Source of the DNA: Myxococcales bacterium
GTDB taxonomy: Bacteria; Myxococcota_A; Polyangia; Haliangiales; Haliangiaceae
Direction: 5' to 3'
Assembly (NCBI GenBank): GCA_016707895.1
Contig: JADJGV010000002.1
Coordinates: forward strand, 655,695 to 719,694
Length of the DNA stretch: 64,000 nucleotides
Shown in pieces: positions 19,278 through 21,806 of the stretch. Position 1 is the stretch's first letter; each line of letters opens with the position of its first letter. The translations under genes were made by a program, and so were the position numbers. The notes under the pieces are model-generated. The model saw nothing but the letters and a program-made list of their open reading frames with translations. It was not told the DNA's origin and made no database searches.

Positions 19278-21275
19278 ATGCGCCCCTACACCGACGCGAG
19301 CGAGCACCTCGCGGATCAGCTGGCGGCGGTGCGGGTGGCGCTGCGGCTGGCGGCGCGGCGGCGGAGTGGTGCGGACGCGGCGGAGCTGGCGCGGCTGGCG
19401 GAGCGCCGGGCCCGGATCGAGGGCGAGAGCGCGGCGCGGGCGGCGGTGTCGGAGCTGGCGCTGGTGCCGCTGGAGCGGGTGCGGCGCACGTTCCGGCTGT
19501 CGCCGACCGAGGTCGGCGTGCTGGTGCTGCTGACCGCGATCGAGGTCGACGTGCGGCTGCACGGGCTGGCGGTCGCGCTGATGAAGGACGCGGCCCGCGG
19601 CCACGTCGACGTCGGGTTCCTCGGCGAGGTGCTGTACGCCGACGCGCGGCAGCGGCTGCCGTTCGAGCTGGGCGCCGACGGCGCGCTGGTGCGGTTCGGG
19701 CTGGTGCAGCTGGACGGCGGCGCGCCGGTGTTCACGCTGGGGCGGCCGCGGGTCGCGGCGCGGGTGGTCGATCTGCTGCACGGGCGCGATCGCCTGGAGC
19801 GCGGGCTGGCGCGCGTCGTCGAGCCGATCGCGCCGCTGCCGGCGGAGGCGCTGGTGGTCACCGAGGGCCAGCTGGTCGAGCTGGCCGGGCTGGTCGGCGC
19901 GGCGATCGAGCGGCCCGGGCACCCGGTGCTGGTGATGAGCGGCCCCGACGGCGCCGGGCGCAAGGCGCTGGTCGCGACGCTAGCGGCGACGGCCGGCGTG
20001 GCGACGCTGCGGGTGCGGGTGGCGGCGTTGCCGCGATCGGCGGGTGAGCTGGCCGCGGTCGGTGCGGCGCTGATGCGCGAGGCGATGCTGGCGCGCGCGG
20101 TGCTGGTGCTCGAGGGCGTCGATCAGGCGCCGCCCGGCGTCGGCCCGCTCGACGACGCGCTGTGCCCGGCGTATCCGGGGCCGATCGTCGCCACCGCTGG
20201 TCGCATCACCGGCCGACCGCCGGCGATGGCCCGCGGCGTGGTGATCATCGAGCTGGGCGTGCCGGCCGAGACCGAGCGCGAGGCGCTGTGGCTGCGCGCG
20301 CTGCGCCCAGCGCCGGCGGCGCTGGCGCGCTGGGCCGGCGAGCGCTACGCGGTGACGCCGGGCGTGATCGCGCAGGCCGGCGCGTCGGCGGTGGCGCGCG
20401 CCGCGGCCCGCGCCGGCGACGACGCCGTGACCACCGCCGACGTCCACGCCGGCCTGCGCGGCGTGCTCGACGCCAAGCTGGCGACGCTGGGCACGCGGAT
20501 CGCCTGGCGCCAGGGCTGGGACGAGCTGGTGCTGCCCGACGACGCGGCCGCCGAGATCCGCGAGTTCATCGCGCGCATCAAGCACCGCCGGCAGGTGTAC
20601 GAGCACTGGGGCTTCGGCCGGAAGGTCGCCAAGGGCATGGGCCTGTCGGCGCTGTTCGCCGGGCCGCCTGGCACCGGCAAGACGATGGTCGCCGGCATCA
20701 TCGCCGACGAGCTGGGCCTCGACCTCTACCAGATCGACCTGTCGAAGGTGGTGAGCAAGTGGGTCGGCGAGACCGAGAAGAACCTCGGCGAGCTGTTCGA
20801 CGCCGCCGAGGCCGGCCACGCGATCTTGCTGTTCGACGAGGCCGACGCGCTGTTCGCCAAGCGCACGCAGGTGCAGACCAGCAACGATCGCTACGCCAAC
20901 CTCGAGGTGAACTACCTGCTGCAGCGGATGGAGGCGTACGCCGGCATCGTGATCTTGACGACCAACCACGAGACCGCGATCGACGAGGCGTTCCGGCGTC
21001 GGCTGTCGCTCAAGGTCGACTTCCCGGTGCCCGAGGCCGACGAGCGGGCCCGGCTGTGGCGCGCGCTGTTGCCGGCCGAGGCCGAGGTCGCCGCCGACAT
21101 CGACGTCGACGCGCTGGCGCGGCGCTTCGAGATGACCGGCGGCTACATCAAGAACGCGACCGTGCGCGCGGCGTTCCTGGCCGCCGACGAGGGCGGGCCG
21201 ATCGCGATGCGGCACCTGGTCCGCGCGGCCCGCGCCGAGTACCAGGCGATGGGCAAGGTCGTCTCGCACCTCTAA
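19278..21275 (+). CDS. AAA+ ATPase with a long N-terminal domain (single C-terminal AAA module)
   Basis: Walker A (GPPGTGKTM), Walker B ([11 protein letters not shown]), sensor-1 (ILTTNH). 665 aa. Sits immediately downstream of the copy-2 pair. Confidence 0.8.
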
Positions 21276-21341
21276 CGGTTGGCGCGGAGGCGCTTGACGG
21301 CCGGCGGGGCCCGTGGCGCGATCGCGCGCGAGGTGACGATC

Positions 21342-21806
21342 ATGGAGATGCCGAAGGTCGGTCGCGAGATGCAACGGTTGGCGGAGCTGTTCGTGGGCTC
21401 GTGGCGCGGCGACGAGCGGCTGTTCCCGTCGGCGTGGGACCCGGTCGGCGGGCCCGCCGTCGGGACCTGGACGGTGCGGTCGGTCGCGGGCGGCTTCGCG
21501 CTGGCGTTGGAGTACATCGAGGAGCGCGACGGCCGGGTGACGTACCAGGGCCACGGCGTGCACGCCCAGGACGCCCACACCGGGCAGCTGGCCGCGTTCT
21601 GGTTCGACAGCATCGGCGTGGTGCCGAAGGCCGGCGTGCCGGCGACCCTCGAAGGCGATCGCTACACGTACACCGAGCGCACGCCGACCGGGCAGTCGCG
21701 GTTCACCTACGCGTGGCAGGGCGGCGTGTTCACGTTCACGATCGATCGCTCGCCCGACGGCGTGACCTGGGCGCCGATGCACGCGGGCACGTACCGCCGG
21801 ACGTGA
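21342..21806 (+). CDS. Small hypothetical beta-rich protein
   Basis: Start set at MEMPKVG, where GAGGTGA lies 7 nt upstream. 154 aa. 4 nt after the AAA ATPase stop in ORF-track terms. No recognisable motif. Confidence 0.45.
   Translation: MEMPKVGREMQRLAELFVGSWRGDERLFPSAWDPVGGPAVGTWTVRSVAGGFALALEYIEERDGRVTYQGHGVHAQDAHTGQLAAFWFDSIGVVPKAGVPATLEGDRYTYTERTPTGQSRFTYAWQGGVFTFTIDRSPDGVTWAPMHAGTYRRT

Follow-up and report, generated by a model that had tools for sequence, protein, structure and literature searches.

Why should an ATPase of the type that loads cargo into injection systems be encoded where no injection system is found? The question is raised by a 64,000-nucleotide stretch of a Myxococcales genome (GCA_016707895.1, contig JADJGV010000002.1, positions 655,695 to 719,694; hereafter "the window"), in which the gene for a 665-aa AAA+ ATPase follows two genes for DUF4157 proteins. 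DUF4157, a recognised core and toxin marker of extracellular contractile injection systems (eCIS) whose function is unknown (PMC8213781, PMC11297309), is usually taken to indicate eCIS cargo, and ATPases of the Afp15 type are usually taken as dedicated cargo loaders. Such ATPases and DUF4157 cargo are thus already known; what is new is a clade, confined to Myxococcota and including the window ATPase, that is linked to genes of a contractile injection system (CIS) at none of the loci sampled and that is facultatively paired with DUF4157 proteins. A literature search on orphan Afp15, Pvc15 and Cis15 found no prior description of orphan members.

Family and architecture of the ATPase

The gene, as well as the two AAA+ modules predicted in its product, can be described as follows.

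19278..21275, + strand: AAA+ ATPase of the Afp15/Pvc15/Cis15 family, 665 aa (Pfam, BLASTP, AlphaFold2 model, Foldseek, motifs)
About residues 196-400: D1, a degenerate AAA+ module (AlphaFold2 model, motifs)
About residues 410-665: D2, an AAA+ module of the active type (AlphaFold2 model, motifs)

The open reading frame (ORF) has a coding-type composition, with a G+C content at third codon positions (GC3) of 0.97. The proposal that its product is of the Afp15 type was borne out by the comparison with characterised systems. The protein shares 31% identity with Serratia Afp15 (pADAP) over residues 143-661 (E 5e-72 in BLASTP; 231 bits in phmmer), 34% with the Nostoc CIS ATPase over residues 55-664 (E 1e-114; 351 bits) and 41% with the Streptomyces CIS ATPase over residues 239-662 (E 3e-78), that is, 31-41% over 420-610 residues. 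In Pfam, all four proteins have the same architecture, PF22977 followed by AAA, which is the arrangement expected of family proteins of about 650-750 aa. In the window protein, the N domain matches PF22977, a winged-helix variant, at residues 1-178 (E 5e-14, 52.9 bits with a cut-off of 27), and the classic AAA module (PF00004) lies at residues 459-583 (E 1.1e-30). When the ATPase was used in a tblastn search of plasmids, the matches were ATPases inside genuine CIS clusters of Nostoc and Streptomyces; the former is surrounded by baseplate, tail and DUF4157 genes, and the latter by genes for the DUF4255 cap, sheath, tube, VgrG, PAAR, gp25 and baseplate. Competing AAA+ families scored lower (Cdc48 138 bits, on D2 only; IetA 122 bits), and the likeness to IetA, Cdc48 and EccA is confined to D2 and weaker than that to Afp15. 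On the basis of the shared domain layout, motifs and sequence similarity, the window ATPase belongs, over its full length, to the Afp15/Pvc15/Cis15 family.

The initial annotation had described a single-module AAA+ protein with a long N-terminal domain; this description proved wrong, since both the AlphaFold2 model and Foldseek place a degenerate D1 between the N domain and D2. The model, with a predicted local distance difference test (pLDDT) value of 84.5, comprises a helical winged-helix N domain and two alpha-beta-alpha modules with lids, and Foldseek matches it to the tandem D1-D2 modules of p97, Cdc48 and Rix7, with 555-590 aligned columns. As modelled, therefore, the ATPase is a tandem AAA+ protein. 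D1 has the Walker A sequence GPDGAGRK, with Arg at the position of the canonical Lys, and, in VLVLEGVD, no DE of a Walker B motif. D2 has [13 protein letters not shown], the pore loop SKWVGE, a sensor-1 Asn and paired Arg fingers; the corresponding positions are [14 protein letters not shown]563 and R574-R575. The catalytic and pore-loop residues of D2, together with the D1 motifs, are invariant across 23 relatives from the clade described below.

This organization is that of Pvc15, described as an N domain, a dead D1 and an active D2 (PMC11495950). Indeed, Afp15, Pvc15 and Alg15 share with the window ATPase the PF22977 domain, a D1 in which Arg replaces the Walker A Lys and the Walker B DE is missing, and a D2 that has GTGK, DEAD and a pore loop of the K-W/Y type, the identity with Afp15 extending over 520 residues. 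The Cis15 proteins of Streptomyces, cyanobacteria and the CIS-bearing myxobacteria Nannocystis, Byssovorax and Polyangium are of the same family and length, with identities of 34-41% (about 50% in D2), but they adjoin DUF4255 cap, sheath and tube genes and fall on the other side of the split in the ATPase tree. The tandem unfoldases p97, Cdc48 and Msm0858 resemble the window protein in their predicted D1-D2 tandem and classic-clade modules, with template modelling (TM) scores up to 0.65 for D1-D2 constructs; however, the identity is only about 20%, and their N domain is a double-psi barrel, whereas that of the window ATPase is a winged helix accompanied by a degenerate D1.

A Myxococcota clade apart from the contractile tail

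The neighbour-joining tree of 87 ATPases (387 columns) separated two groups with a bootstrap of 98/100. The window ATPase belongs to the first of them, a Myxococcota clade here called clade A, which is represented in the tree by 26 loci from Kofleriaceae, Myxococcales, Myxococcota and "Deltaproteobacteria" metagenome-assembled genomes (MAGs), plus one labelled only Proteobacteria. The other group includes 61 loci from many phyla, among them the CIS-bearing myxobacteria mentioned above.

The two groups differ strongly in their genomic surroundings. At least one CIS structural family was found within 10 kb at none of the 53 clade-A loci, versus 92 of the 114 remaining loci (81%; Fisher p 3.7e-26), and a DUF4157 gene was found within the same distance at 7/53 and 70/114 loci, respectively (Fisher p 2.3e-9). 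Where at least 5 kb were available on both sides, CIS families occurred at 0/17 clade-A loci and at 58/62 of the rest, and DUF4157 genes at 4/17 and 45/62. These counts come from two sets of loci. For the first, one genome per species of GTDB was scanned and the 80 best loci were kept, in addition to loci already in hand; the second came from an independent scan of metagenome contigs, in which the loci were classed by clade-specific hidden Markov models (HMMs) with a clearly bimodal difference in score, and it contributed a further 27 loci of clade A and 53 of the rest. Every locus was scored with locally built HMMs in a neighbourhood of 10 kb or less on each side.

At six of the seven clade-A loci with a DUF4157 gene, this gene lies directly downstream of the ATPase gene and on the same strand. 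The initial annotation had suggested following the phylogeny of the ATPase and its co-occurrence with DUF4157 genes: the protein is related to Afp15, and the association with DUF4157 recurs, in direct adjacency, in other genomes, although it is a minority feature of the clade. Since 46 of the 53 clade-A loci have no DUF4157 neighbour, the pairing is facultative, and we infer a link between the ATPase and DUF4157 proteins that is real but not obligatory. The other neighbours of clade-A genes are housekeeping genes, kinases and giant proteins without a family match. An all-against-all clustering of clade-A neighbours revealed no conserved neighbour, the sole multi-locus cluster being formed by protein kinases, which are abundant in myxobacteria; the 312-aa neighbours at two loci (L005 and L008) are barely similar, and the Pfam analysis of 20 neighbours gave mostly housekeeping families or no match.

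Some Myxococcota are reported to possess CIS clusters (PMC11937823), and the myxobacterial CIS operons in our sample (L039, L061, L062 and L072) hold the other type of ATPase. In one of these loci (L061), a further ATPase ORF, only 425 aa long (13349-14623, - strand), sits between two DUF4157 genes; its similarity to the family profile is restricted to the D2 half.

As for the window itself, the claim that it harbors no sheath, tube or baseplate genes held in every analysis, and no CIS structural gene or other secretion gene was found in its 64 kb. When Afp1-17 and the proteins of one Streptomyces and one Nostoc CIS served as seeds, only the ATPase was matched in the window, and iterative HMMs for the tube, sheath, VgrG, gp25, PAAR, baseplate J, DUF4255 cap and LysM tube initiator gave a best E value of 0.099 there; the same HMMs did recover their genes in archaeal, cyanobacterial, actinobacterial and other loci. 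The Pfam matches of the surrounding genes concur, being those of ordinary housekeeping genes. Upstream of the ATPase and its DUF4157 genes they include TPR, Wzz/tyrosine kinase, Polysacc_synt_2 and PhoD; downstream, DUF72, a methyltransferase, DUF362/CBM9, pyrH, frr, tsf and rpsB; and, further downstream, an AcrB fragment, an SNF2 helicase, a Ser/Thr kinase, ATP-grasp proteins, glycogen synthase and TetR. ATPases of this family typically lie between the tape-measure and DUF4255 cap genes of a CIS operon or beside its sheath and tube genes. The window ATPase is thus not encoded in a CIS operon, nor are the DUF4157 proteins near an eCIS operon within the 64 kb. When the Nannocystis CIS sheath was compared with a set of 5.8 billion proteins, few named matches were obtained, none of them tied to this MAG, and the two sheath matches that were looked up came from other samples. 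These features distinguish the window ATPase from Afp15, Pvc15 and Alg15: no sheath, tube, baseplate, tape-measure or cap gene occurs in the 19 kb upstream or the 42 kb downstream, the protein belongs to a separate clade, and most members of that clade have no DUF4157 neighbour.

Some clade-A ATPases carry mutually homologous N-terminal extensions that span about 400 aa, or 1000 aa in the case of L102, and have coding-like GC3:

L017, 8798-10045: N-terminal extension
L102, 6235-9234: N-terminal extension
L106, 3000-4229: N-terminal extension
L112, 96-1319: N-terminal extension
L113, 2537-4072: N-terminal extension
L114, 8498-9889: N-terminal extension

The extensions contain repeated strand-like motifs (e.g., LDLRFGR...IAID) followed by a proline-rich linker. 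Pfam gave no match for these 400-1000 aa, and the extension may be a beta-propeller-like domain that recruits substrates. Other clade-A ATPases have a giant protein, between 1700 and more than 3300 aa long, encoded directly beside them (L005, 1-8917, - strand; L043, 1556-11500, + strand; L026, 11700-16850, + strand). The one at L026 has two DUF4157-like segments and is homologous to the one at L043; in the first 1000 residues of the L043 and L005 proteins, no recognisable domain was found.

The DUF4157 proteins and a proposed role of the ATPase

The genes that precede the ATPase form two similar pairs separated by small ORFs.

8558..11632, + strand: DUF4157 (eCIS_core) cargo-type protein, copy 1, 1024 aa (PF13699, E 2.5e-12)
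11629..12519, + strand: partner of copy 1, 296 aa, resembling a kinase C-lobe (Pfam, NCBIfam, PADLOC)
12656..14531, + strand: three small ORFs of 125, 234 and 265 aa between the pairs (gene calls)
15235..18342, + strand: DUF4157 cargo-type protein, copy 2, 1035 aa, with an alternative start at 15196 (PF13699, E 6e-8)
18339..19223, + strand: partner of copy 2, 294 aa, with weak similarity to a kinase C-lobe

Gene calls and Pfam confirmed that the ATPase gene stands directly after the second DUF4157 gene and that of its 294-aa partner. The PF13699 matches lie at residues 92-154 and 131-184 of the two DUF4157 proteins, preceded by charged leaders of about 90 (copy 1) and 120 residues (copy 2) with neither a signal peptide nor a hydrophobic signal. 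Both proteins then have DUF4157 with HEAAH, a divergent middle part, a hydrophobic, glycine-rich segment and a conserved C-terminal domain formed by the last 230-280 aa or so (window positions 10790-11629 and 17500-18339). The identity between the copies is 55% in the leader plus DUF4157 and 57% in the C-terminal 510 aa. They therefore have the layout expected of eCIS cargo, i.e., a leader without a Sec signal, DUF4157 with HExxH and a C-terminal domain, which is also that of the AlgoCIS cargos Cgo1/2; like Afp15, Pvc15 and Alg15, the window ATPase adjoins proteins of this type. The idea that DUF4157 N-termini serve as cargo signals needs to be refined: in AlgoCIS, the disordered N-terminal domain is the loading signal and the Alg15 ATPase is required, but DUF4157 itself is dispensable for loading (bioRxiv 10.64898/2026.05.27.728243). 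Within the family, Pvc15 and Alg15 are the only ATPases known to be needed for bringing cargo with an N-terminal tag into the lumen of the tube.

Which role can be proposed for the ATPase? The protein would be a double-ring AAA+ unfoldase of the Afp15/Pvc15 lineage, with a catalytically dead D1 and an active D2. Judging by homology, it would form a hexamer, recognise the shared leader, devoid of a signal peptide, of the DUF4157 proteins and, driven by ATP hydrolysis in D2, thread or unfold them. Clade A would have been uncoupled from the contractile-tail operon to serve substrates of the DUF4157 type, and perhaps others, without an adjacent tail; the unfolded protein might be destined for another export route, for activation or for turnover. 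Such a functional uncoupling is suggested by the lack of CIS linkage at all 53 loci, by the finding that myxobacterial CIS operons possess an ATPase of their own from the other clade, and by the extension of about 400 aa gained by one subclade. If clade A is uncoupled from the tail operon, then the ATPase most likely serves substrates without an adjacent tail. There is good support for the family assignment of the ATPase and for its evolutionary link to DUF4157 proteins; its substrates, its unfolding activity and its independence from a tail we infer from homology and from the gene neighbourhoods. On the whole, we consider a tail-independent role on leader-DUF4157 proteins, and perhaps on other substrates, to have about an even chance of being correct. 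More tentatively, the Myxococcota-specific unfoldases and the metallopeptidase-like DUF4157 leader domains might constitute a toxin-handling module that works without a tail, in which toxins are unfolded, activated or passed on to another export route.

Several points weigh against the tail-independent role. The scan for CIS genes reached 10 kb on each side of a locus and 64 kb in the case of the window, there may be a slight overlap between the two sets of loci (L075 and L159 represent one contig), and the tree was built by neighbour joining on only 387 columns. The window is the exception among the seven DUF4157-bearing loci, its cargo and partner genes being upstream of the ATPase gene. No DUF4157 neighbour was detectable at 46 of the 53 loci, many of which lie amid housekeeping genes; for this reason, the main substrates of clade A may be something other than DUF4157 proteins.

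These points have to be considered together with the other roles that the ATPase could play. It might load the adjacent DUF4157 cargos into a CIS encoded elsewhere in the genome, the cassette then being an orphan island of cargo plus loader. This would be in agreement with the completeness of the protein, which belongs fully to the family and retains every catalytic and pore-loop motif, with the correspondence between its neighbours and Cgo1/2, whose loading needs Alg15, with the existence of CIS clusters in some Myxococcota, and with the fact that 88% of eCIS toxins are located within ten genes of the operon, so that some lie outside. However, a clade of loaders would be expected to be linked to CIS genes at least sometimes, and clade A never is, compared with 81% of the rest; the CIS operons of myxobacteria already own an ATPase of the other clade, most clade-A members have no cargo-like neighbour, and one subclade has acquired its 400-aa N-terminal extension. 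We regard loading into a distant CIS as possible, though rather doubtful. The solitary position of most clade-A genes, among YebC, pseudouridine synthase, FtsK, RecG and the like, and a fold that is also that of the general unfoldases p97 and Cdc48 might instead point to a stand-alone Myxococcota ATPase devoted to quality control or remodelling, whose proximity to DUF4157 genes in the window would be meaningless. This is hard to reconcile with the DUF4157 genes found directly downstream, on the same strand, at six independent loci, with the joint movement of ATPase and DUF4157 genes between genomes and with the ties of the parent family to DUF4157 (70/114 loci), and we judge it improbable.

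Even less credit can be given to an anti-phage defence ATPase of the Iet type with the neighbouring proteins as effectors. D2 does match the IetA/IteA models (122 bits in PADLOC, 112 bits in NCBIfam), but the match is limited to D2, the NCBIfam cut-off is 510 bits, a PADLOC scan of eight proteins from the island and its flanks revealed neither an IetS protease nor any other component, and the match to Afp15 is both better and full-length. The defence-system interpretation was rejected, as only D2 resembles IetA; an Iet system pairs an ATPase of IetA length (about 370 aa) with IetS, of which none was seen among the proteins scanned.

Because clade A, which is well supported, has never been found beside tail genes and yet is repeatedly adjacent to DUF4157 genes, it offers a natural setting in which the relation between ATPase and DUF4157 can be studied apart from the tail. 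Predictors of eCIS toxins that rely on DUF4157 or on the ATPase as markers may mislabel Myxococcota proteins. If the ATPase does act independently of a tail, then the portable functional unit would be the DUF4157-ATPase pair and not the phage tail; if a distal CIS is present, the cassette would be a mobile unit of cargo with its own loader, of relevance to the engineering of cargo specificity.

The cassette, its slot and the 154-aa gene

The genes described above make up a cassette of about 13 kb (about 8.4-21.3 kb of the window), with the ATPase at its 3' end, located between conserved PhoD and DUF1579 genes. The comparison with a related genome, GCA_016717005.1, revealed that the interval between these two genes (window 8317-21341) is variable. 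Its counterpart in that genome (L094, 2964-8000) holds a PT-HINT polymorphic-toxin protein, a 120-aa neighbour, CotH and an FHA-EAL protein, with no ATPase or DUF4157 gene, and it is possible that the slot is a hotspot for toxin cassettes. The same genome has its own ATPase, 66% identical to that of the window, about 200 kb away on the same contig and directly followed by a gene for a 414-aa DUF4157 protein; the first 200 residues of the latter (leader plus DUF4157) share 58% identity with copy 1 of the window, and the leader motif is partly shared. The ATPase travels with DUF4157 genes. The G+C content of the window is 72%, and its 10-12 kb stretch is the lowest (0.658), which is consistent with a foreign origin of the cassette.

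The last gene considered here was thought to belong to the same module.

21342..21806, + strand: 154-aa protein, probably of the DUF1579 family, first gene of the conserved flank (homologues, synteny, AlphaFold2, Foldseek)

It starts 66 nt past the stop codon of the ATPase gene, with a Shine-Dalgarno-like sequence (GAGGTGA) upstream. Its product is beta-rich, as predicted: the AlphaFold2 model (pLDDT 96) is a 10-strand beta-barrel that superposes in Foldseek on OlmO, nitrobindin and Rv2717c with TM scores of 0.75-0.84. The match to the PF07617 (DUF1579) profile covers positions 11-155 of 155 and, at 23.5 bits, is just below the Pfam cut-off of 25.2, but homologues with 39-73% identity carry PF07617. 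An adaptor or chaperone of the ATPase would be suggested by the common strand, the short distance and the absence of a terminator-like site in between, the scan for promoters and terminators having given nothing above chance. Against this stands the 73%-identical ortholog of GCA_016717005.1, which occupies the same backbone (PhoD, the variable slot, DUF1579, a 275-aa gene, DUF72, a methyltransferase, a 239-aa gene and DUF362/CBM9, the genes being 73-87% identical to those of the window) with no ATPase or DUF4157 gene alongside. Furthermore, another homologue is located among unrelated genes, no DUF1579 gene was found at any other clade-A locus scanned, and the fold is that of a nitrobindin-like ligand-binding barrel. 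An adaptor function is thus very improbable; given the synteny of the ortholog and the lack of DUF1579 at the other clade-A loci, the gene is the first of the flank, a backbone gene unrelated to the ATPase-DUF4157 module.

A few further observations concern the other products of the cassette. The C-terminal domain of the DUF4157 proteins had no match in Pfam or in a sequence search of the PDB; it contains a motif, HSHPTH...LPSAMDLH, that might recall a JAMM/MPN+ metal site carrying an insertion, and the hydrophobic, glycine-rich segment that precedes it looks like a membrane helix. The three small ORFs had no match in Pfam or PADLOC; their homologues were found with local HMMs only in contigs of this genome (the window, L001 and L003), and their GC3 is lower, about 0.75. 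The two partner genes, whose products might be immunity proteins, accessory factors or active kinases, overlap the stop codons of the DUF4157 genes. Their products show a weak but repeated likeness to the C-lobe of Ser/Thr kinases (Pkinase below the Pfam cut-off; MADS6 in NCBIfam; mad6 and PD-T4-6 in PADLOC), and a profile built from them drew in true kinases.

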